From Desulfosporosinus sp. (GTDB lineage: Bacteria > Bacillota > Desulfitobacteriia > Desulfitobacteriales > Desulfitobacteriaceae): a stretch of DNA of 64,000 bases. Shown piece after piece: positions 16,474 to 55,868 of this stretch (within the stretch, counting starts at the first letter, position 1; each line of letters starts with the position of its first letter). The stretch lies in assembly GCA_003513495.1 (NCBI GenBank), contig DOPM01000043.1, forward strand, positions 907-64,906. The letters are read 5' to 3'. A program made the position numbers and the translations under genes. The notes under the pieces are model-generated. The model was not told the DNA's origin and searched no databases. It saw only the letters and a program-made list of their open reading frames with translations.

Positions 16474-16491
16474 GCAGCGAATACATGAGGT

Positions 16492-16518
16492 GTGTCAAGG
16501 GGACGATCCTTTTGACAC
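16492..16518. repeat. 27-bp palindromic repeat, copy A (GTGTCAAGGGGACGATCCTTTTGACAC)
   Basis: Its reverse complement differs from copy B at one position. Lies in the hydC-hydB intergenic space. Confidence 0.9.
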
Positions 16519-16526
16519 GAAGAAGT

Positions 16527-16553
16527 GTGTCAAAAGGACCGTCCCCTTGACAC
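16527..16553. repeat. 27-bp palindromic repeat, copy B (GTGTCAAAAGGACCGTCCCCTTGACAC)
   Basis: Same family as 45136-45161 and 55841-55868. Inverted relative to copy A, 8 nt away. Confidence 0.9.
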
Positions 16554-16578
16554 GCCCTCGAAGGAAGGGAAAAGCCAT

Positions 16579-42173: not shown

Positions 42174-43319
42174 ATGGGAAGATTTTCCTGGGTTCGTTTT
42201 TTAGCCGTCTTGAAAAAGGAATTCCTCCACATTCGGCGAGACCGTGCCAGTTTAATCATGGCCATGGTCATGCCGATCGGTATGCTTCTTCTATTTGGTT
42301 ATGCGGTCAATACGGATGTCGATCATCTGCCTACAGTTATTTGGGATCAATCTCAAACAACCGATAGCCGAGACTTTATCGCGTCTATACGGAACACTCA
42401 ATATTTAGATCCCGATGAATATGTCCAAGGATATCATCAGATCGAAAGCTATCTGGACAGCGGTAAAGCTCGGGTAGCCGTCATCATTCCGCCTAATTTT
42501 GGCAAAGAGTTACAGAGAGATAATGGTCAAGGCAACGTTCAGGTTTTAGTCGATGGGTCTGATCCTACTATAGCTCGAGCGGCCATGTCCGCGGTTCAGA
42601 TGCTTGGTCTTAATAAATCCTTAGAGATACAAGGGGTTCGTCTTGCCGCTAGGGGAGCGGCATTGGGTACGAACATGCCACTTAATATAGAGACTAGAGT
42701 TTGGTACAACCCGGACATGAAGTCAATGGTCTTTAACATTCCAGCTTTAATCGGTCTGATCTTACAAAATGTTATAGCAATGTTAACTTCGTTTTCTATT
42801 GTGCGTGAAAAAGAACGTGGTACCATGGAACAAGTGGTCGTGACTCCTATTCGCTCTCTTGAATTGCTTATGGGCAAGCTTCTTCCTTTTGTGTTTATCG
42901 GTTTTGTTTCTTTGACCTTAATTTTAGCGACGGCGATTTTTTGGTTTGGAGTTATGCCGGCAGGAAGTATTCCTCTTTTAGTAATCTTATCCACCATTTT
43001 TCTGTTTACGATTCTAGCCATTGGACTCTTGATTTCCAGTGTTGCCAAGACTCAGCTTCAAGCGATGCAAATGACCTTTATCCTGATTTTGCCCTCAATC
43101 CTCTTATCGGGCTTCATCTTCCCTCGGGAAACCATGCCTACGTTTCTAAAAATTATAGGTGGATTATTTCCATTGACATATTTTCTGGAGATCGTAAGGG
43201 GAATCTTCCTTAAAGGGGTAGGGATGGAGTATCTTTGGCAGGATACGCTCATCCTTTGTGCCTTCGCTATTGTCCTAGTAGGGATAGCAGCTAAGAAGTT
43301 TAAGAAAAACCTGGATTAG
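42174..43319 (+). CDS. ABC-2 type transporter permease (YbhS/YbhR-like)
   Basis: 381 aa: N-terminal TM, large extracytoplasmic loop, then five C-terminal TMs. Confidence 0.85.
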   Translation: MGRFSWVRFLAVLKKEFLHIRRDRASLIMAMVMPIGMLLLFGYAVNTDVDHLPTVIWDQSQTTDSRDFIASIRNTQYLDPDEYVQGYHQIESYLDSGKARVAVIIPPNFGKELQRDNGQGNVQVLVDGSDPTIARAAMSAVQMLGLNKSLEIQGVRLAARGAALGTNMPLNIETRVWYNPDMKSMVFNIPALIGLILQNVIAMLTSFSIVREKERGTMEQVVVTPIRSLELLMGKLLPFVFIGFVSLTLILATAIFWFGVMPAGSIPLLVILSTIFLFTILAIGLLISSVAKTQLQAMQMTFILILPSILLSGFIFPRETMPTFLKIIGGLFPLTYFLEIVRGIFLKGVGMEYLWQDTLILCAFAIVLVGIAAKKFKKNLD

Positions 43320-43660
43320 CGGAGGATGTGAAGTTGCTCCGGTCACCCACGGCGCCGTCACTATCGCACTTGATTCCGAAGCGAGCGTTGGCAAACCTCT
43401 GGGCGTTCTGGCCGCATGCTATGCCATCCTTGGCGCATGCGGCACTAGGAACATCGTGTTCCGTCGCATGTGTGTTGCTCCTTGCCATCCTTGGCACCGC
43501 AACATCAGTCCATCCATGGACAAGTCCCGTGCCACGCTGGCACTTCGGAATCTAAGCGCGATTAACGCGACTCTGCCTAAAGGGTTCGCTCTGCAACATC
43601 ACACCCTCTGGTCTGGAGTGACGGGAGTTTAAGAACGGAAGGGTTTGATGCTGCTCAGGT
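43320..43660. ncRNA. GC-rich multi-hairpin intergenic element (candidate structured RNA, orientation unknown)
   Basis: Long-range helix 43372-43381 / 43543-43552 (10/10), with extensions, encloses four hairpins. The 12-mer GCCATCCTTGGC occurs twice. No ORF has a usable RBS. See findings. Confidence 0.35.
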
Positions 43661-43701
43661 AAAAAGCCTGTCGTTAGGTTTTAACTAGCGACAGGCTTTT
43701 T
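43661..43701. terminator. Bidirectional terminator
   Basis: AAAAA-GCCTGTCG (43666-43673) / CGACAGGC (43689-43696)-TTTTT. Confidence 0.8.
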
Positions 43702-43704
43702 ATG

Positions 43705-44943
43705 TTAGCTGTTCATTTTGGTTCGAATTCGTTCGATAGCTTTTTCCGTATTCTCTCGGGTCCCAAAGGCCGTTAAGCGGAAGTACCCTTCGCCATTAGC
43801 ACCAAAGCCTGCACCTGGGGTACCCACAACATTAGCTTCTTTCATGAGCTTGTCGAAAAACTCCCAAGAACTCATATTATTGGGGGTTTTCATCCAGATA
43901 TAAGGGGCATTAATTCCACCAAATACTTCATAGCCCGCTTTCGTCAGTCCTTCTCGAATGATTCGGGCATTTTCCATATAGTAGTCAATGGTTTCTTTAA
44001 CTTGCTTTTTTCCTTCTTCAGTGTATATCGCTGCTGCTGCAGCTTGCACTGGATAAGAGACCCCATTAAACTTTGTGGTTTGTCTTCTCAGCCATAGTTT
44101 ATTTAGACTATGAGGCTCACCTTTTGAATCATAGACCATAACTTCTTTTGGTACAACAGTATAGGCACACCGTGTTCCGGTAAAGCCCGCTGTTTTGGAA
44201 AAGCTTCGGAACTCTACAGCGACTTCGCGGGCACCTTCAACCTCATAGATCGAGCGAGGGACGTTTTCTTCACGTATGTAAGCTTCGTAAGCAGAATCGT
44301 ACAGGATAATGGATTTATTTTTCTTTGCGTAGTCCACCCATTGCTTTAGCTCTGATTTAGTTAAGGTCATTCCGGTTGGATTGTTTGGGAAACAGAGGTA
44401 AATCATATCTACATGAGTTGTTGGAAACGCGGGTTTCATTCCGTTTTCTTCGGTACAGGGAAGATAAACAATACGTTCATACTGCCCTTTATCTGCATTG
44501 AAGTTCCCAGTACGCCCTGCCATCACGTTACTGTCTACATAAACCGGATAGACAGGGTCAGTGACTGCCATGATATTGCCGGTACCAAAAATCTCTTGAA
44601 AGTTTGCGGTATCACTTTTTGCTCCATCGCTGACGTAGACTTCATCTAAGGTAAGATCGACTCCCCGGGTCTTGTAATCGTTTTCGATAATTTTTTGAAT
44701 TAGAAAGTCATAACCTTGCTCGGGACCATACCCTCTAAAGGTTTCGGCGTTCCCCATTTCATCAACAGCTTTTTTCATAGCTTCAATAACCGCGGGAGGA
44801 AGTGGACGAGTTACATCTCCAATCCCTAAGCGAATGATATCCGCATTAGGGTTCTCGTTTTTAAACTGATTCACCCTGCGGGCAATCTCCGAAAACAGAT
44901 AACTTCCAGGTAACCTAAGATAATTCTCGTTCATTAGTGCCAT
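43705..44943 (-). CDS. dapL: LL-diaminopimelate aminotransferase
   Basis: N-terminus [24 protein letters not shown] and the PLP-lysine context [10 protein letters not shown] are typical of DapL. Confidence 0.85.
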
Positions 44944-45023: not shown

Positions 45024-45135
45024 TTTTTTTCCCTAGTCATTTCATCTCAAGAAAAGGGCTTCTGGAAATTGTTAATTTACCTTTATTATACTGCGATTAA
45101 CGTGGTAAAATAAGAAAGTATGGATGTGTCATGGT

Positions 45136-45161
45136 GTGTCAAAGGACCGTCCCCATGACAC
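45136..45161. repeat. Palindromic repeat, copy C (GTGTCAAAGGACCGTCCCCATGACAC)
   Basis: Same family as 16492-16553 and 55841-55868. Lies in the 5' leader of the aminotransferase gene. Confidence 0.85.
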
Positions 45162-45181
45162 ACAAGAACGGAGTGTATGAT

Positions 45182-46351
45182 ATGCTGCCATCGAAACGAT
45201 TAGAAGGATTAGGAGCGTCCGTTTTTACGGAAATGGATAATCTGAAAAGGGAATTGGAGAGGGCTGGAAAGAGTTTAATTAATCTTAGTATAGGAAGTCC
45301 AGATCGTGCCCCAGCTCATGAAATCCGCAATGTTCTTAGTAAAGCAGTTCTGGATGATGATCAATATGGTTATACATTAACCCGCGGGACAGACGATTTT
45401 CGTAAAGTTTGTGCGGAATGGTATCAAGAACGTTTTGGTGTTACTTTAAACCCAGAAACTGAAGTTTTGCCACTGATGGGTTCTCAGGATGGTCTGGCAC
45501 ATGTTTTTTTAGCCTATATCGACTCTGGGGATCTAGCCTTGATTCCTGATCCGGGCTATCCAATTTATACGGCGGGTTTGTTGCTGGCTGGTGGAGAGAA
45601 AGTAGCAATTCCTTTGCTGGAAGAGAATGGTTTCCTACCTGATCTAAAGCAAATTGACCCGAATATCGCTCGCAAGGCAAAGCTTATGTTCTTGAATTAT
45701 CCCAATAACCCCACGGCTGCCGTGGCTAACCTCGAGTTTTTTGACGAGGTTGTAGAATTTGCTAAAGAGTATGATCTGCTCATTTGTCATGATGCTGCCT
45801 ATTCCGAATTAGCGTTTGAGGGCTTCAAACCTGTGAGTTTTTTGCAAGCAGGGGGGGCAAAAGAGGTTGGTATTGAATTCCATTCTGTTTCTAAGACGTA
45901 TAATTTAGCAGGAGCGAGATTAGGATTTGTTGTCGGCAATGCCGATGTCATTGGAACTCTCTCTCAACTCAAATCAAATATTGACTATGGTGTCTTCGCT
46001 CCCGTTTTGACTGCTGGCGCTTATGCCCTTCGTAATGCGCAAGGATCTATCGAAGAGAATAAGAGTGCCTATCAGAGACGTCGGGATCTCTTGATAGAGG
46101 GTTGTGCCTCTGCCGGTTGGAAAATGCCGATCCCGCAAGGTTCCATGTTTATCTGGGCACCTGTACCGACTGGACAAAGCTCGGTATCCTTTGCAATGGA
46201 TTTAGCCCGCGAAGTTGGAGTAATTGTAGTGCCAGGGATAGCCTTCGGAGAACATGGCGAAGGATTCGTAAGGATTGCTATGGTTCAAGATGAAGGTGTA
46301 CTGCAGGAAGCAGTACAGCGAATTCAACAGTTTTTAAAACATTGTAGATAG
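45182..46351 (+). CDS. Class I/II PLP-dependent aminotransferase
   Basis: SVSKTYNLAGARLG PLP-lysine motif and NYPNNPT. ATG 45182 (MLPSKRLEGL). The upstream 17 codons in the track ORF translate the repeat. Confidence 0.85.
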   Translation: MLPSKRLEGLGASVFTEMDNLKRELERAGKSLINLSIGSPDRAPAHEIRNVLSKAVLDDDQYGYTLTRGTDDFRKVCAEWYQERFGVTLNPETEVLPLMGSQDGLAHVFLAYIDSGDLALIPDPGYPIYTAGLLLAGGEKVAIPLLEENGFLPDLKQIDPNIARKAKLMFLNYPNNPTAAVANLEFFDEVVEFAKEYDLLICHDAAYSELAFEGFKPVSFLQAGGAKEVGIEFHSVSKTYNLAGARLGFVVGNADVIGTLSQLKSNIDYGVFAPVLTAGAYALRNAQGSIEENKSAYQRRRDLLIEGCASAGWKMPIPQGSMFIWAPVPTGQSSVSFAMDLAREVGVIVVPGIAFGEHGEGFVRIAMVQDEGVLQEAVQRIQQFLKHCR

Positions 46352-46571
46352 GTAATCCCTTACGGTTATTTCTCAGTTTCTTAAGGCAGTTTGGGCACTG
46401 GGCACGATTTTAATTAAATGATGATTATGAAATTATTTTGGCGAAATGACAACTTGTTATATCGCCTTTTTATTTAGTTATAGGGGGGATAGAAATAAGG
46501 AATGTGAAACCGGCCTTCCTATAGAAGGTAAACAATGCTTTTGGGTTGAATAACTCAATTAGTTGTAAACT

Positions 46572-46665
46572 TAAAATACGCAAACCTAATGAAAGTTAGG
46601 GACGCAAAGCCACGGGTCTAAGGGTCGTACTTTGTACAATCACGATAGCCGGGTTGCAGAAGCGC
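46572..46665 (+). promoter_or_regulatory. c-di-GMP-I (GEMM-I) riboswitch aptamer
   Basis: ACGCAAACC-UAAUGAAAGUUAGG-GACGCAAAGCC-ACGGGUCUAA...AGCCGGGUUGC matches the conserved GEMM-I core (GCAAACC, GNRA loop, GGGACGCAAAGCC, CGG.CUAA, AGC.GGGUU.C). Confidence 0.85.
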
Positions 46666-46714: not shown

Positions 46715-46823
46715 GTTCTGGTTATGAATTGGGGGGATATTAAGGCGGTATCACTGTCATCTTTGAATGAAAGGCCGATGTCGAATAATAATATTTGATC
46801 ATTACATGAATGGGGATGAAGGT

Positions 46824-48887
46824 ATGTTTAAGAAACTATTTAATATTTCTAGCCTCAGTAGTAAGACAATGGTGACGATTTTACCCTTAGTACTATTAAC
46901 TTTAGTGGCTATGTCAGTAATCAGCTATAAATATTCAGAAAATCTACTTAAGAATGAGATTCAAAATAAAATGACTGCTCAATTAAAAGGTACGATCAAA
47001 GATATCGAGAAGCAATTAACGGCCCATGATACGCTGCTTCAAGGTCTAGCGCGTACTGTAGAGTCTATTGGTAACGGTGTAAGTACTGAAGAGTATGCAA
47101 GTTTGCTCCAGAAAATGATAACAGCTAATAGCGTTACCTTTGGAGCAGGGGTGTGGTATGAACCTTATGCTTATAACAGTGATACTCAGTACTTTGGACC
47201 TTATGTATATAAAGATAAAGACGGTAAAGTAGTGTTTACCAATGAATATGCTGACCCTAAATATGATTATCCCGCTCAGAAATGGTATACCATAAGTAAA
47301 GGTATTACTGAGAAATCCATTTGGACTGATCCCTATTATGATGAAGGTACTAAGGCTACCATATTAACGGACAATGTCCCGTTTTATGATAATAGTGGAA
47401 ATTTCAAGGGTACAATAACCGGTGGGATTGATTTCACTACGTTACAAACGTTAATTAGTAATATTCAATTAGATATCGAAGCAGATATTTACCTCTTGAA
47501 TAAAGAAGGTAAGTATCTGGCGAATCCAAATCCAAAAAAGATCATGAATATCAAAATTACGGAAGAAGAGAACCTCAGCTTGAAAGAAGCTGCAGAAAAG
47601 ATGATGGCTGAGAAAAGCGGCACGGTTCCTTACAATAACAATGGGGCCAGGCAAGTTTACTATGCAGAAGTTCCGCAGTTTGGTTGGATTTTAGCAATTG
47701 ATGTTTCGGAAAATGACTTGATGGCTCCGTTAAAGGATCTATTGAATCGAATGCTAATTCTAATTGTACTGGCAATGGCGGTAACCTGCACAGTGCTCAT
47801 CTTATATAGTCGCTATATAGTTAAAAATATCAAAATGGTCAATCGGTTTGCATCAGCTATTGTTCAAGGGGATCTTAGCCAAACCATGGTCGTTCGTTCG
47901 AAAGATGAGTTCGGACAGATGACTGAAAATCTTAATAGGATGATGAACAACTATAAAGGAATTATTAATGGTATTGTAAATAGTTCCGAACAATTAGCAG
48001 CCTCTGCAGAAGAATTAACTGCTAGTGCCGATGAAGGGAGTAGGACAACGGAGCAAATTGTTTACTCCATTCAAGAAGTTTCTGACGGGGTTAAGGAAAA
48101 GCTAACGGGTGTCGACGCCACGGCGCAGTCTGCCCAATTAGTCTCTGTGCATATGCATACTATCACCCAGGATATCAATTTAGTAACGGCAGGGTCCCAC
48201 GCTACATCAGTGAAGGCTGCTAATGGGAATAGTGTTGTTAAAAAAGCTGTAGACGAGATGCAAGCGATTAGTACTAAGGTCATAGAGGCAGCAGATGTGG
48301 TGAATAGTTTAGGGGAAAAATCAGCGGAAATTGGTGAGATAGTAGGAATAATAACCAGTATTGCGGCTCAAACAAATCTCCTCGCTCTAAATGCTGCTAT
48401 TGAGGCCGCACGGGCAGGCGACCAGGGAAGGGGGTTTGCAGTTGTCGCTGATGAAGTCCGTAAACTTGCTGAACAGTCGAGTGATGCCGCCGGCAAAATA
48501 AGTGGTTTGGTGGGCGAGATTCAAAAAGAAACCTCAAAGGCAGTTAAGACTATGAATGATGGAACTGCCGCGGTTCAAGACGGGATTACTATGGTTAATT
48601 CGGCGGGTGAAGCGTTTCAAGATATCTTGCAGGGAGTTAACGACTTTTCAAAACAGGCACAAGCTGTTGCTGACGTGATAGAGAAGGTTGGGACAAGTAC
48701 TGAGACAATTGTTGCTTCAATCATGGAAGTAGCCAGCATTCCTAAGGAAATTGCCGGTAGTCTTGAAAATGTAGTTGCAGGGACAGAAGAACAGAGTGCT
48801 TCTATGGAAGAAATTCGTAGATCGGCTACCTCACTTGCCCAAATGGCAACAGACTTCCAGGGCAGTGTGACCATGTTTAAACTTTAA
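46824..48887 (+). CDS. Methyl-accepting chemotaxis protein with double-Cache-like sensor and HAMP
   Basis: Highly conserved signalling hairpin [39 protein letters not shown]. Periplasmic region of about 280 aa between two TMs. ATG 46824 (MFKKLFN). Confidence 0.9.
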
Positions 48888-51861: not shown

Positions 51862-53646
51862 ATGAATACTGGATTATTAGCTATTCTTTCCCTACTCCCC
51901 ATCGCTGTTGTAGGAATCTTTCTAGTGGGGTTAAAATGGCCTGCAAGTAAAGCTATGCCGCTCTCATTTATTACAGCAGTCATACTCGCACTTTTTGTTT
52001 GGAAAATTCCCGGTGCCCAGGTAGCAGCTGCATCTGTTAATGGTGTTATTGTAGCGGGTACACTCATGTACATTATTTTCGGCGCTATCCTTCTATTAAA
52101 TACATTACAAGAAAGCGGAGCGATTCAGGCCATTAGGAGAGGCTTTACAGGAATCACCGCTGACCGAAGAATTCAAGTTATTATTGTCGCTTGGCTCTTT
52201 GGTTCCTTTATTGAAGGTGCCTCAGGATTTGGTACTCCTGCTGCCGTTGCGGTTCCGTTGATGGTTGGGCTGGGTTTCCCAGCTATGGCTGCCGTCGTCG
52301 CTGGAATGATGATTCAAAGTACTCCCGTTTCCTTCGGAGCTGTAGGAACTCCAATGCTGGTTGGAGTCAGTACAGGACTTAAAACTCCTGAACTAGAAGC
52401 TTATGCCGCATCCTTAGGGTATACTGATTGGACAGCATTCGTCGGATTTGCGGTTGCAACCAAAGTTGCCTTCCTGCATTTTGCGGCAGGTGCCCTTATT
52501 CCCCTCTTCGTTGTTGCTTTTATGACACGCTATTTTGGTAAAAACAAATCCTTTAGCGAAGGTCTCAAAATTTGGAAATTTGCACTTTTTTCCGCGTTTT
52601 CCATGACTATTCCCTACCTACTAGTGGCCAACTTACTCGGACCTGAATTCCCTTCCATAATTGGTGGTCTAACAGGTCTGGCAATTGTTGTAACTGCTGC
52701 TAAGAATGGCTTCCTCATGCCAAAAGGAGAAGCTTGGGATTTTGAAGCAAAAGACAAATGGGATCCCTCTTGGACTGGTTCGATTGAGATTAAGGATATT
52801 TCTGCTAAGACTGCCATGAGCGGCCTAACTGCTTGGATGCCGTATGTCCTCGTTGGTTTATTCCTTGTCCTTTCTAGACTCTCATTTTTACCCTTTGCGG
52901 GTTGGCTCAAGGCTTGGACGGTTAAGTGGCCAGCAATTTTTGGAACAGGAATCACGGCCTCCTTCCAACCTCTCTATTTACCCGGTACCATCTTTATCTT
53001 AGTCTCCCTTATTACGTTCTTCCTGCATAAGATGAATGGAACTGCTTATGCCAGAGCATGGAAAGGCTCAGCAAAAACCATGCTTGGAGCAGGTTCCGCG
53101 CTTATTTTCACCGTCCCCATGGTTCAAGTGTTCATGAATTCGAAAGGTGGCGCGGCTGGCCTAGCTAGTATGCCGATTGTCCTCGCTGAAGCCGTTGCAG
53201 GATTAGCTGGGTCTGCATGGCCCATCTTCGCTCCTTTGATCGGTGGACTTGGAGCTTTCGTAGCTGGAAGTAACACTGTTTCTAACATGATGTTCTCCTT
53301 GTTCCAGTTCGGTGTAGGTGAACGTATCGGAGTTGATCCAACCTGGATTGTAGCCCTTCAAGCCGTTGGGGGTGCAGCAGGAAATGTCATCTGTGTACAC
53401 AATGTTGTCGCTGCTTCGGCCGTCGTAGGTCTGCTTGGAAAAGAAGGTTATGTTATTCGTAAGACTGCGGTCGTATTCGCATATTACGCTTTACTTCCAG
53501 GAGCTGTGGGTTATGCCATTCTCTATAGCGCTCAAAACGGATTGATCAATGCCGGAACGATTATTGCTGCATCGATTTGGGCTGCTGTAGTCTATATTAT
53601 CGCAACTAATAATAGTAGACTTAAGAATCTCCCTGGTGCAAAATAA
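51862..53646 (+). CDS. lctP: L-lactate permease (LctP family)
   Basis: 594-aa polytopic protein with LctP-typical regions ([31 protein letters not shown]). GAGGAGG RBS. Confidence 0.9.
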
Positions 53647-53711: not shown

Positions 53712-53763
53712 GTTACTCCATGGCCTGCGCCTGTAAGTTTTTACGACAAGCTAACTCGTGCCG

Positions 53764-53884
53764 TGCAAAGACAATGTCTGTAAGAAGGGTTATTACGTGC
53801 GAAGACAGTGTCTGCAAGAAGGGTTACTACGTGCGAAGACAGTGTCTGCAAGAAGGGTTACTACGTGCGAAGACAGTGTCTTCG
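53764..53884. repeat. 34-nt direct tandem repeat, 3.5 copies, each carrying an AGACA-N-TGTCT palindrome
   Basis: Units at 53764-53797, 53798-53831, 53832-53865 and a partial unit 53866-53884. Units 2 and 3 are identical (TGCGAAGACAGTGTCTGCAAGAAGGGTTACTACG). Unit 1 has 4 substitutions. Confidence 0.95.
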
Positions 53885-53904
53885 TGTGTGTGTGTGTGTG
53901 TGTG
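53885..53904. repeat. (TG)10 dinucleotide microsatellite
   Basis: Uninterrupted TGTGTGTGTGTGTGTGTGTG immediately after the tandem array. Confidence 0.95.
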
Positions 53905-55840: not shown

Positions 55841-55868
55841 GTGTCAAAAAGGACCGTCCCCGTGACAC
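55841..55868. repeat. Palindromic repeat, copy D (GTGTCAAAAAGGACCGTCCCCGTGACAC)
   Basis: Starts 2 nt after the tsaE stop. Flanks extend the palindrome (AGC...GCT). Same family as copies A-C. Confidence 0.9.

Follow-up and report, generated by a model that had tools for sequence, protein, structure and literature searches.

The window (the whole stretch of Desulfosporosinus sp. DNA that was analysed, 64,000 nucleotides) carries on its plus strand a gene for an ABC-2 transporter permease (42174–43319; Pfam PF12698, E = 5.8e-50), whose product matches a Desulfosporosinus sp. protein with 100% identity; the gene stands last in a cluster (TetR / HlyD-type / ABC ATPase / permease). Downstream lies a bidirectional intrinsic terminator (43661–43701), recognized in an earlier reading made from the letters alone (hereafter the sequence-only reading) and borne out here by its A-tract, 14-bp stem and T-tract. 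It serves both the permease operon and a convergent aminotransferase gene, and it is kept in D. meridiei, D. hippei and D. nitroreducens. The DNA between the permease gene and the terminator is GC-rich, with a G+C content of 0.57 in 43300–43599 versus about 0.40–0.46 in the flanks, and no sigma-70-like promoter was found near it on either strand.

Most of this interval is occupied by a single palindromic unit of 292 nt at 43320–43611 of the plus strand. We set these limits because a helix reaches the very ends of the unit: the 5′ terminal arm CGGAGGATGTGAAGTTGC (43320–43337) pairs with the 3′ terminal arm GCAACATCACACCCTCTG (43594–43611), an outermost helix absent from the sequence-only reading. 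The covariance model of the repeat family described below (R1) and an nhmmer profile match the unit end to end (43321/2–43611), and the terminator lies outside it. The unit begins one nucleotide beyond the permease stop codon TAG (43317–43319) and is located in the 3′ UTR of the permease gene; the plus-strand 3′ UTR placement proposed earlier agrees with the gene context. The minimum free energy (MFE) of the plus-strand RNA of 43320–43705 was −173 kcal/mol (z −6.75, as good in 0 of 100 shuffles) and that of the minus-strand RNA was −165.7 kcal/mol (z −7.36); with DNA parameters the element folded with a z of −5.84. Both the long-range helices and the four enclosed hairpins that had been proposed from the letters appear in the MFE fold, and every earlier position that we checked was correct, including those of GATTCCGAAG, CTTCGGAATC, the repeated 12-mer GCCATCCTTGGC and GCTCCTTG (43477–43484), as was the G+C content of about 57%.

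The 5′ terminal arm resembles a Shine-Dalgarno sequence and bears a TGA that is invariant in the family, T9, G10 and A11 being unchanged in all 11 copies compared. Further inside, the inner 5′ arm (43363–43393, including GATTCCGAAG at 43372–43381 and AGCGTTGGCA) pairs with the inner 3′ arm (43530–43562, including TGCCACGCT and, at 43543–43552, CTTCGGAATC). In other copies the pair GATTCCGAAG/CTTCGGAATC is replaced by GATTTCTCGG/CCGAGAAATC or GATTACTCGG/CCGAGTAATC. The inner arms enclose an apex module (43394–43533, delimited by alignments), which is enlarged here; the short form of the element has about 22–30 nt at this place. Four hairpins make up the module. Hairpin 1 (43411–43443) consists of GCCGCATGC / GCATGCGGC capped by GCCA-TCCT-TGGC, and hairpin 2 (43448–43462) is GGAACA-TCG-TGTTCC; both come from the MFE fold. 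Hairpin 2 is unique to the window copy, and hairpin 1 occurs in no other copy than this one and the identical metagenome and Logan copies. Hairpin 3 (43474–43503) is GTTGC...GCAAC capped by TGCCA-TCCT-TGGCA, and hairpin 4 (43508–43521) is GTCCA-TCCA-TGGAC. The 12-mer GCCATCCTTGGC is found at 43423–43434 and 43484–43495, its only two matches in the window with up to one mismatch, and two or more matches appeared in 5 of 100 shuffles. Hairpin 1 may have arisen locally, by its appearance, as a partial duplication of hairpin 3.

Of the four apex hairpins, two (those with CCATCCWTGG) are found again at other loci and in D. orientis, and the conservation of such hairpins in other loci and other species speaks for the sequence-only reading. 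The 3′ 80 nt of the apex module recur behind hslO of D. sp. BICA1-9 (L021) and behind the thiamine pyrophosphokinase (TPK) gene of D. orientis (L025), and are partly present at three more loci (L018, L019 and L023). The stem of hairpin 3 shows compensatory changes, being GTTGC/GCAAC in the window, GTCGC/GCGAC in BICA1-9 and GCCGC/GCGGC in D. orientis, and the CATCAGTCCATCCATGGACAAG of hairpin 4 is identical in all three. A stretch of 22 nt around hairpin 4 is unchanged between the window and D. orientis, whose synonymous sites are saturated relative to each other; at the fourfold-degenerate sites of the flanking genes the two are only 33% identical. On the 3′ side of the 3′ arm, a G-rich, C-poor tail follows (43609–43653), which is present in nearly all copies. 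The 45-nt tails of 11 copies contain on average 46% G and 11% C, compared with 24% and 19% window-wide, and the motif TGGGCT.GAG..CGACGGGGAG recurs among them. At the position of the tail D. hippei has a full cheD gene and D. meridiei a 5′-truncated one, and in the window cheD is gone; the window tail may also keep the last traces of the lost gene.

Searches of databases gave no known counterpart. The Rfam 15 covariance models gave no match in 43320–43660 at the gathering score or at E values up to 10, and none in the tandem short copies of D. hippei; the weak matches obtained were on the terminator hairpin only. Distant-mode blastn against plasmid and phage collections gave no match, and neither did Pfam within the element. 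No reading frame is conserved among the homologs, all frames being interrupted by stops in other copies, and the variable columns show no codon periodicity. The stop-free peptides from all six frames of three copies, concatenated and compared with 5.8 billion proteins, returned nothing at E values up to 1. The view that the interval is non-coding, highly structured and free of Rfam families therefore stands. A literature search combining Desulfosporosinus with MITE, palindromic or REP returned no Desulfosporosinus paper among the 15 top-ranked matches.

Within the 64-kb window no second copy was found by a repeat finder, motif searches allowing 3 mismatches, the nhmmer profile or covariance model R1. 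Other Desulfosporosinus genomes do contain copies, often in tandem, which sit at the stop codons of unrelated genes or a few nucleotides away from them. Full copies stand behind this ABC-2 permease gene in D. meridiei, in D. shakirovi and, as a tandem pair, in D. hippei; full copies also follow hslO, which encodes Hsp33, in an HMP52-like metagenome contig (two in tandem), BICA1-9 and D. shakirovi. Behind the TPK gene we found copies in D. shakirovi and remnants in BICA1-9 and D. orientis. In D. shakirovi (GCA_020595055.1) the element occupies at least three loci, and four copies were seen at three loci. A metagenome scan with a pattern from the 5′ arm yielded two true loci (L012 and L015); five further matches (L011, L013, L014, L016 and L017) were discarded as chance matches in high-GC coding DNA. 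A scan of a genome collection with the exact 21-base pattern CTTCGGAATCN{12,42}CTAAAGGGTTC matched only the D. hippei locus, and it says little on copy number because the pattern was too strict, missing D. meridiei despite its fitting sequence.

The family members range from 152 to 292 nt. The commonest form is a rod-like hairpin of 185 nt, and the form with CCATCCWTGG hairpins at the apex measures 235–290 nt; the window copy, the longest variant found, has the same arms as the rod and an enlarged apex. In 7 of the 10 full-length copies the GGA/UCC hairpins are lacking and the arms are equally conserved. All 10 full-length copies and every 5′-end remnant lie in the sense orientation relative to the upstream gene, between its stop codon and a terminator or the next gene, and on the reverse strand there is a single match, weak and 38 nt long, in D. 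orientis. The permease locus is without the element in D. orientis and L020, as is the hslO locus in D. orientis, and at the hslO locus of D. youngiae a 12-nt match to the 5′ end of the element is all that is present. Remnants of the 5′ end, 35–42 nt long, were found in D. nitroreducens, BICA1-9, L019 and D. orientis, and internal deletions in the L018 copy and in the second TPK copy of L023. In D. orientis, the loop of hairpin 3 is split by a nested, different repeat (a 34-nt unit; 37 nt).

The copies are 72–87% identical to one another and 72–82% identical within a genome. The BICA1-9 hslO copy shares 85% identity with the TPK1 copy of D. shakirovi versus 72% with the D. shakirovi hslO copy, and the permease copy of D. 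shakirovi shares 86–87% with the hslO copies of the HMP52-like contig. The copies thus do not group by locus, and therefore movement or conversion between loci has to be assumed. As the identity within a genome is only 72–82%, any transposition must have been old or slow, and the recurrence of three loci across several species calls for either a site preference or vertical descent with conversion. The sequence-only reading had named a MITE-like repeat as an alternative; its dispersed family was found, whereas the near-identical copies expected of it were not, and no direct repeat is common to the flanks of 11 copies. On the left the flanks differ from one another, and on the right the conserved G-rich tail blurs the boundary. 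Comparison of filled and empty sites is confounded at hslO, where the native gene end, GAGAGGGCRTGATG, resembles the 5′ end of the element. This 5′ end occurs once in the window, and an IS4-type gene in L024 has unrelated flanks.

To assess the helices in homologs, which the sequence-only reading had left to a covariation check, we examined the pairs of the family consensus, in which 92.7% of the cells are paired. Double-sided changes were found in 16 of 55 pairs, versus 7.8 ± 1.8 in shuffles (0 of 500 reached 16) and 1–4 pairs in slid controls. Six of these pairs belong to the 17 of consensus helix 1, the terminal helix, which every full copy has and in which 90.9% of the cells are paired, and ten to consensus helix 5/6, formed by the inner arms. 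Compensatory changes thus back the helices. The pair cells comprise 504 Watson-Crick, 15 G·U, 12 A·C and 19 other combinations, and since G·U is no commoner than A·C there is no signature of an RNA strand. Folding is equally good on both strands and with DNA parameters, and the constraint looks like one on Watson-Crick pairing rather than on RNA pairing. Orthologous copies are 81–86% identical, versus 42–54% at the fourfold-degenerate sites of the flanking genes.

Based on these results, we consider it probable that 43320–43611 is one copy of a new small dispersed palindromic repeat family of the MITE/ERIC/bcr1 kind, restricted to the genus Desulfosporosinus. Its two arms are long and imperfectly complementary and are closed by a 17-bp terminal helix; the apex is either short or hairpin-bearing, and one strand has a G-rich tail. 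Like MITEs, the units have terminal inverted repeats, are small, and carry neither a transposase nor a conserved ORF; several dispersed copies exist in one genome, that of D. shakirovi, and at the same loci the copies are missing or reduced to remnants in D. orientis, D. youngiae and D. nitroreducens. Because the copies of the family stand behind the stop codons of unrelated genes, a small selfish repeat is the most likely identity of the element, rather than a regulatory RNA gene that exists only here. Of the proposed novel structured RNA, therefore, the structure holds, and the locus-specific RNA gene does not, since the repeat occupies three or more unrelated loci and its copies include tandem, truncated and nested ones. 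We suggest that the family acts as a non-autonomous element that was spread or copied among a few preferred sites. The hairpin would be required for propagation, as single-stranded DNA or as a cruciform, and would be recognized by a trans-acting enzyme. As a by-product, transcription would place a very stable hairpin in the 3′ UTR or between cistrons, where it may protect the upstream mRNA from 3′ exonucleases or give a processing site.

A possible but distinctly less probable explanation is that the hairpin, with or without the apex hairpins and the G-rich tail, is a cis-acting RNA module recruited by the host and selected in 3′ UTRs or intercistronic RNA. Such a module would stabilize, process or insulate transcripts, for example as a barrier to 3′ exonucleases, a site for RNase III/Y or an uncoupler of downstream translation. 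[quoted passage not shown] Conservation far above that of neutral sites, a strand-specific tail that gives the unit a polarity, and the steady sense orientation between stop codon and terminator or next gene also fit a host-recruited function. However, the RNA-strand signature is absent from the pair cells, and a drug-type ABC exporter, Hsp33 and thiamine pyrophosphokinase have no obvious common functional theme. Moreover, sister species manage without the element, and truncated copies as well as a repeat-invaded one are tolerated.

It is improbable, in our judgement, that the repeat carries a functional ligand-binding unit in the form of its apex module (hairpins 3 and 4, CCAUCCWUGG). In one version of this idea, antisense read-through RNA with CAAGGAUG hairpins could titrate CsrA; in the other, the sense UCCU/UCCA loops in 3′ UTRs, together with the G-tract tail, could bind ribosomes or a specific protein and thereby co-regulate scattered genes. 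If the module binds a factor, scattered genes would be joined in one post-transcriptional circuit, and titration of CsrA by the apex RNA, if true, would make it the first RNA antagonist of CsrA in a Firmicute.

More doubtful still, and in our opinion very unlikely, is that the element as a whole serves as a sponge for CsrA or another GGA-binding protein through the minus-strand CAAGGAUG / CAUGGAUG loops, or that the plus-strand CAUCCUUG loops act as anti-Shine-Dalgarno decoys or sRNA-like seeds. The consensus for CsrA obtained by SELEX is RUACARGGAUGU. On the minus strand, hairpins 1 and 3 read GCCA-AGGA-UGGC, CAAGGAUG fits the core of this consensus, and the conservation of hairpins 3 and 4 extends to other loci and species, with compensatory changes in the stems. 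The minus strand offers three GGA-type loops (AGGA, AGGA and UGGA), each of just 4 nt, and the gene context favours plus-strand transcription. The CsrA sponge suggested in the sequence-only reading was not upheld: the copies are sense to the upstream gene, and the minus strand has no promoter-like site. On that strand the only terminator, that of the aminotransferase gene, lies upstream of the element, and none of the copies was found to have its own terminator. Furthermore, most of the full-length members do without such hairpins, the hairpin 3 loop of D. orientis is interrupted, and the element is present as a single copy in the 64-kb window with no more than three sites in any family member.

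We rejected, as scarcely credible, the readings as a decayed protein-coding gene (cheD or another) or as a cheD leader or riboswitch left after the loss of cheD: in D. hippei two copies lie directly upstream of full cheD, in D. meridiei one copy lies upstream of the truncated gene, and a 104-codon stop-free frame crosses the window copy, but the hslO and pyrophosphokinase copies have no cheD nearby, every frame is interrupted by stops in other copies, codon periodicity and Pfam, protein or Rfam riboswitch matches are lacking.

As far as we found, intergenic repeats had not been described in this genus, to which the family with its covariance model R1 is now added; the family also accounts for a GC-rich "orphan" structure that would otherwise be flagged repeatedly as a candidate novel RNA. 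It combines an unusual set of traits: abutment on stop codons, an invariant TGA, the same few loci occupied by different subfamily versions, tandem arrays, a one-stranded G-rich tail and covariation by Watson-Crick pairs only. This combination points to a copying mechanism that depends on the hairpin and prefers certain sites.

Among known systems, the CsrB/RsmZ sponges bear a partial likeness to the Desulfosporosinus repeat in having several short hairpins with GGA loops, which here are found only on the minus strand of long-form copies; they differ in that the repeat has no promoter or terminator of its own, is antisense to the surrounding transcription, offers three sites and lacks the hairpins in most members. 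A dedicated cheD riboswitch or leader was discarded for its inconsistent association, since cheD follows the element in D. hippei and, truncated, in D. meridiei only. Assignment to REP / BIME (RAYT) was likewise rejected. Such sequences are high-copy and usually carry a GTAG or CGTC tag, whereas the unit here has 185–292 nt with a 5′-to-3′ polarity and is not defined by a short palindrome with either tag. REP sequences are described as GC-rich palindromes of 20–40 nt (PMC3184786, PMC3733652). The BOX, SPRITE and RUP elements of Streptococcus pneumoniae resemble the present repeat in belonging to a Firmicute and in being modular, variable in length and extensively structured (PMC3049150). They are co-transcribed, biased to 3′ ends and convergent gene pairs, and were judged to be slow-moving parasitic elements (PMC3049150). 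BOX, however, is built of boxA, repeated boxB and boxC modules and exceeds 100 copies, whereas the modularity of the Desulfosporosinus repeat resides in the apex of its palindrome and its copy number may be low.

Bacterial MITE-like repeats have terminal inverted repeats, form a long RNA stem-loop, lie at 3′ ends of genes and are co-transcribed (PMC3184786). Classical MITEs (Correia/nemis, Nezha, Chunjie and others) share with the Desulfosporosinus repeat terminal inverted repeats, a length below 400 bp without a transposase, and an RNA that forms a long stem-loop; in both, copies may be tandem or nested and can supply stop codons. They are defined, however, by a target-site duplication and a parent insertion sequence, and the 11 copies here are without a common direct repeat. 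The ERIC / IRU sequences of Enterobacteriaceae, imperfect palindromes of 127 bp, are similarly long, transcribed, intergenic and often located 3′ of genes. Internal insertions or deletions give rise to shorter and longer variants of ERIC. They come from an unrelated phylum with unrelated sequence and occur in both orientations, whereas the copies described here are nearly all sense. ERIC influences the stability of the upstream mRNA (PMC3184786).

The bcr1 repeats of the Bacillus cereus group, about 155 bp long (Okstad 2004, Klevan 2007, as summarised in PMC3184786), are likewise Firmicute, genus- or group-restricted, non-coding and dispersed in intergenic regions, with a distribution that differs between close relatives. 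Both families have a stable predicted structure maintained by compensatory changes, and bcr1 is transcribed with its neighbours (PMC3184786). The two have no sequence similarity: bcr1 forms a cruciform-like two-stem structure with 5-bp direct repeats, and the Desulfosporosinus repeat folds into one long rod, to which a multi-hairpin apex may be added, and has a G-rich tail; no common flanking direct repeat was found for it. The element at 43320–43611 exemplifies, with good support, a kind of genomic feature that is already known.

The hairpin-rich region between the ABC-2 permease gene and the bidirectional terminator at 43661-43701 folds as the sequence-only reading had described it, and the terminator itself was also recovered. 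GATTCCGAAG (43372-43381) pairs with CTTCGGAATC (43543-43552) at ten out of ten positions, and the four enclosed hairpins (hairpins 1-4: 43411-43443, 43448-43462, 43474-43503 and 43508-43521) are reproduced in the minimum-energy RNA fold. The 12-mer GCCATCCTTGGC, reported to occur twice, is found at 43423 and 43484 and has no other match within the window. The G+C content of the element region is 0.57 vs ~0.40-0.46 in the flanks. RNA folding of 43320-43705 gave -173 kcal/mol (z -6.75) for the plus strand and -165.7 kcal/mol (z -7.36) for the minus strand, and DNA folding of 43320-43613 (plus strand) gave -69.1 kcal/mol (z -5.84). A terminal pairing of 43320-43337 with 43594-43611 had been missed; since pairing reaches both ends, we define the unit as 43320-43611, starting one base past the permease stop codon. 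The element is non-coding, has no match in Rfam even at E up to 10, and is present in the 64-kb window as a single copy.

The element is flanked by the permease gene, which is the final gene of a TetR/membrane-fusion/ATPase/permease cluster, and by a convergent aminotransferase gene. The permease shares 100% identity with a Desulfosporosinus sp. protein and 88-94% with its counterparts in named species of the genus, and an identical locus exists in two public contigs. The orthologous locus was retrieved from D. meridiei, D. hippei, D. shakirovi, D. nitroreducens, D. orientis and two further contigs (L019 and L020) and compared. Behind the permease gene, D. meridiei carries one 184-nt homolog followed by a 5'-truncated cheD, D. 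hippei two 184-nt homologs in tandem followed by a full cheD, D. shakirovi a single 190-nt copy with the right arm partly deleted, Logan contig L019 a degenerate copy and, after it, a peptidyl-prolyl isomerase gene, and D. nitroreducens the element's first ~35 nt only; D. orientis and L020 have no element at this position. The short form is one long imperfect rod hairpin (-101 kcal/mol, z -9.1, plus strand; -100 kcal/mol, z -8.0, minus strand). In the window copy the arms are the same, and ~125 nt with the four hairpins take the place of ~22-30 nt at the tip.

A pattern scan of metagenomes revealed two tandem copies directly after hslO (Hsp33), convergent with rpmB; the five remaining matches were chance. 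A 236-nt long-form copy follows hslO in D. sp. BICA1-9, and D. shakirovi has a copy after hslO and 1.7 further copies after the adjacent thiamine pyrophosphokinase (TPK) gene. Remnants of the 5' end (39-42 nt) lie after the TPK gene in BICA1-9 and D. orientis. No copy was found directly behind hslO in D. orientis, and the hslO locus of D. youngiae contains nothing but a 12-nt match to the element 5' end, a possible remnant. At least three unrelated loci (permease, hslO and TPK) are occupied, all of them in D. shakirovi, and the homologs found so far come from Desulfosporosinus only. The scan of the genome collection used an exact pattern, too strict to give a copy number per genome; it returned D. 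hippei only and missed the D. meridiei locus although the sequence of the latter (L004) fits the pattern, so the collection seems to lack or mask this region and its negatives need care. The candidate novel structured RNA of the sequence-only reading is a real structured element, but most likely one of a familiar kind of repeat rather than a novel regulatory RNA. All ten full-length copies and all 5'-end remnants have the same orientation as the upstream gene and begin at its stop codon or within ~25 nt of it, the sole exception in orientation being a weak 38-nt opposite-strand match in D. orientis. The element's invariant TGA ends the TPK gene in BICA1-9 and hslO in the HMP52-like metagenome contig L012.

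The spacer between TPK and hslO in D. orientis (CP003108.1; 1.07 kb, L025 934-2001) has no called gene and is crowded with repeat pieces: the 42-nt element 5' end, units of a 34-nt repeat, the weak opposite-strand match and a very divergent long-form copy, whose arms are different yet still complementary. In BICA1-9, the spacer (L021/L022 1218-1779) contains a PhdYeFM antitoxin/ParE toxin pair downstream of the 39-nt remnant; nothing occupies this position in D. shakirovi, D. youngiae or D. orientis, and the spacer is therefore an insertion hotspot. Comparison of hslO 3' ends (L012, L021, L023, L024 and L025) showed that the native end in most species, GAG AGG GCR TGA TG (...ERA stop), is almost the same as the element 5' end GAGGGCRTGATGTTGC; D. 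orientis hslO, which has no copy, ends with GAG CAA GCA TAA (...EQA stop). The element either targets sequences resembling its own end or overwrote the last hslO codons.

The helices are backed by changes in homologs. In an 11-copy alignment 92.7% of cells pair, and double-sided changes occur at 16 of 55 pairs, compared with 7.8 +/- 1.8 in shuffles (0/500 reach the observed value) and 1-4 in slid controls; for example, GATTCCGAAG/CTTCGGAATC is replaced by GATTTCTCGG/CCGAGAAATC or GATTACTCGG/CCGAGTAATC, and ATCGCGC/GCGCGAT by ACCATGC/GCATGGT. Orthologous copies at the permease locus are 81-86% identical, compared with 42-54% at fourfold-degenerate sites of the flanking genes; the element must either be under constraint or postdate the species. 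The hslO copy of BICA1-9 is 85% identical to the first TPK copy of D. shakirovi and 72% identical to its hslO copy; copies do not group by locus, which points to movement between loci or to conversion among them. Nearly every copy is followed, on one strand, by a G-rich tail (46% G, 11% C; motif TGGGCT.GAG..CGACGGGGAG), indicating that the unit has polarity. Together with the consistent sense orientation and the conservation of copies, this tail would suit an RNA module recruited by the host for its 3' UTRs. We consider such recruitment possible but rather unlikely, because decay of copies is tolerated and G·U is not enriched: the 550 cells include 15 G·U, 12 A·C and 19 other non-Watson-Crick combinations. 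These counts carry no RNA-strand signature, and the constraint therefore resembles simple complementarity, as expected of a DNA hairpin or cruciform.

An apex module of approximately CTGCATGTGTG-CGCTCCTTGCCATCCTTGGCACCGCG-CATCAGTCCATCCATGGACAAGTCC is common to the window copy, BICA1-9 (hslO locus) and D. orientis (TPK locus); it is partly kept in three degenerate copies and wholly missing from 7 of 10 full-length ones. The hairpin-3 stem covaries (GTTGC/GCAAC, GTCGC/GCGAC, GCCGC/GCGGC), and a 22-nt stretch around hairpin 4 has the same sequence even in D. orientis, so that both hairpins count as conserved features of the family. Only the window copy has hairpins 1 and 2 (43411-43462), which look like a local partial duplication. 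In D. orientis, 37 nt inserted into the hairpin-3 loop (L025, about 1240-1276) interrupt it; this insertion is one unit of a different small repeat. If the element still holds a surprise, it would be in the conserved apex module. A role of the hairpins as a CsrA sponge, as had been proposed, or as an anti-Shine-Dalgarno decoy is very improbable, given the wrong strand context, the failure to find a promoter and the lack of the hairpins in most family members.

An orphan cheD gene, encoding a chemoreceptor glutamine deamidase, occupies the interval between the permease and aminotransferase genes. It is intact in D. hippei (L008 4061-4531), shortened at its 5' end to 75 codons in D. meridiei (L004 3900-4127), and gone from the window (about 43612-43660), D. 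shakirovi and D. nitroreducens; this series is a stepwise gene loss beside the repeat. That the element itself is a cheD leader or coding remnant is hardly credible, being contradicted by the copies at the hslO and TPK loci.

Other features of the window include a c-di-GMP-I riboswitch (RF01051, 69.9 bits, E = 1.2e-11) at 46569-46661 (+); a methyl-accepting chemotaxis protein gene (46767-48887) with dCache, HAMP and MCPsignal domains begins ~100 nt downstream of it. At 53762-53885, in the intergenic region after the ORF 51862-53646, ~4 tandem copies of the 34-nt unit ACGTGCGAAGACAGTGTCTGCAAGAAGGGTTACT, which includes the small hairpin CGAAGAC-AGT-GTCTTCG, precede a (TG)n run that extends to about 53905. 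The same unit sits in the D. orientis hairpin-3 loop, with a related hairpin ~100 nt upstream, and seems to represent a second family of small repeats. The 26-28-nt palindrome GTGTCAAAAGGACCGTCCCCTTGACAC occurs four times (16489-16556, 45136-45161, 55841-55868), including one inverted pair and one site in the 5' region of the second aminotransferase gene (45131-46351), and may be an operator or REP-like hairpin.

We conclude that the element is probably a new, genus-restricted small dispersed palindromic repeat of the MITE, ERIC, BOX or bcr1 type. Such a repeat would be non-autonomous, would favour a few sites adjoining stop codons and may depend on its hairpin for copying, and its passive transcription would yield a very stable hairpin in 3' UTRs or intercistronic RNA. 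The MITE-like alternative considered earlier holds as far as a dispersed palindromic family at three or more loci is concerned, but strict membership of that class is unproven, since neither a target-site duplication nor a parent insertion sequence was found. The traits of the element agree with those given for small dispersed repeats (PMC3184786; PMC3049150).
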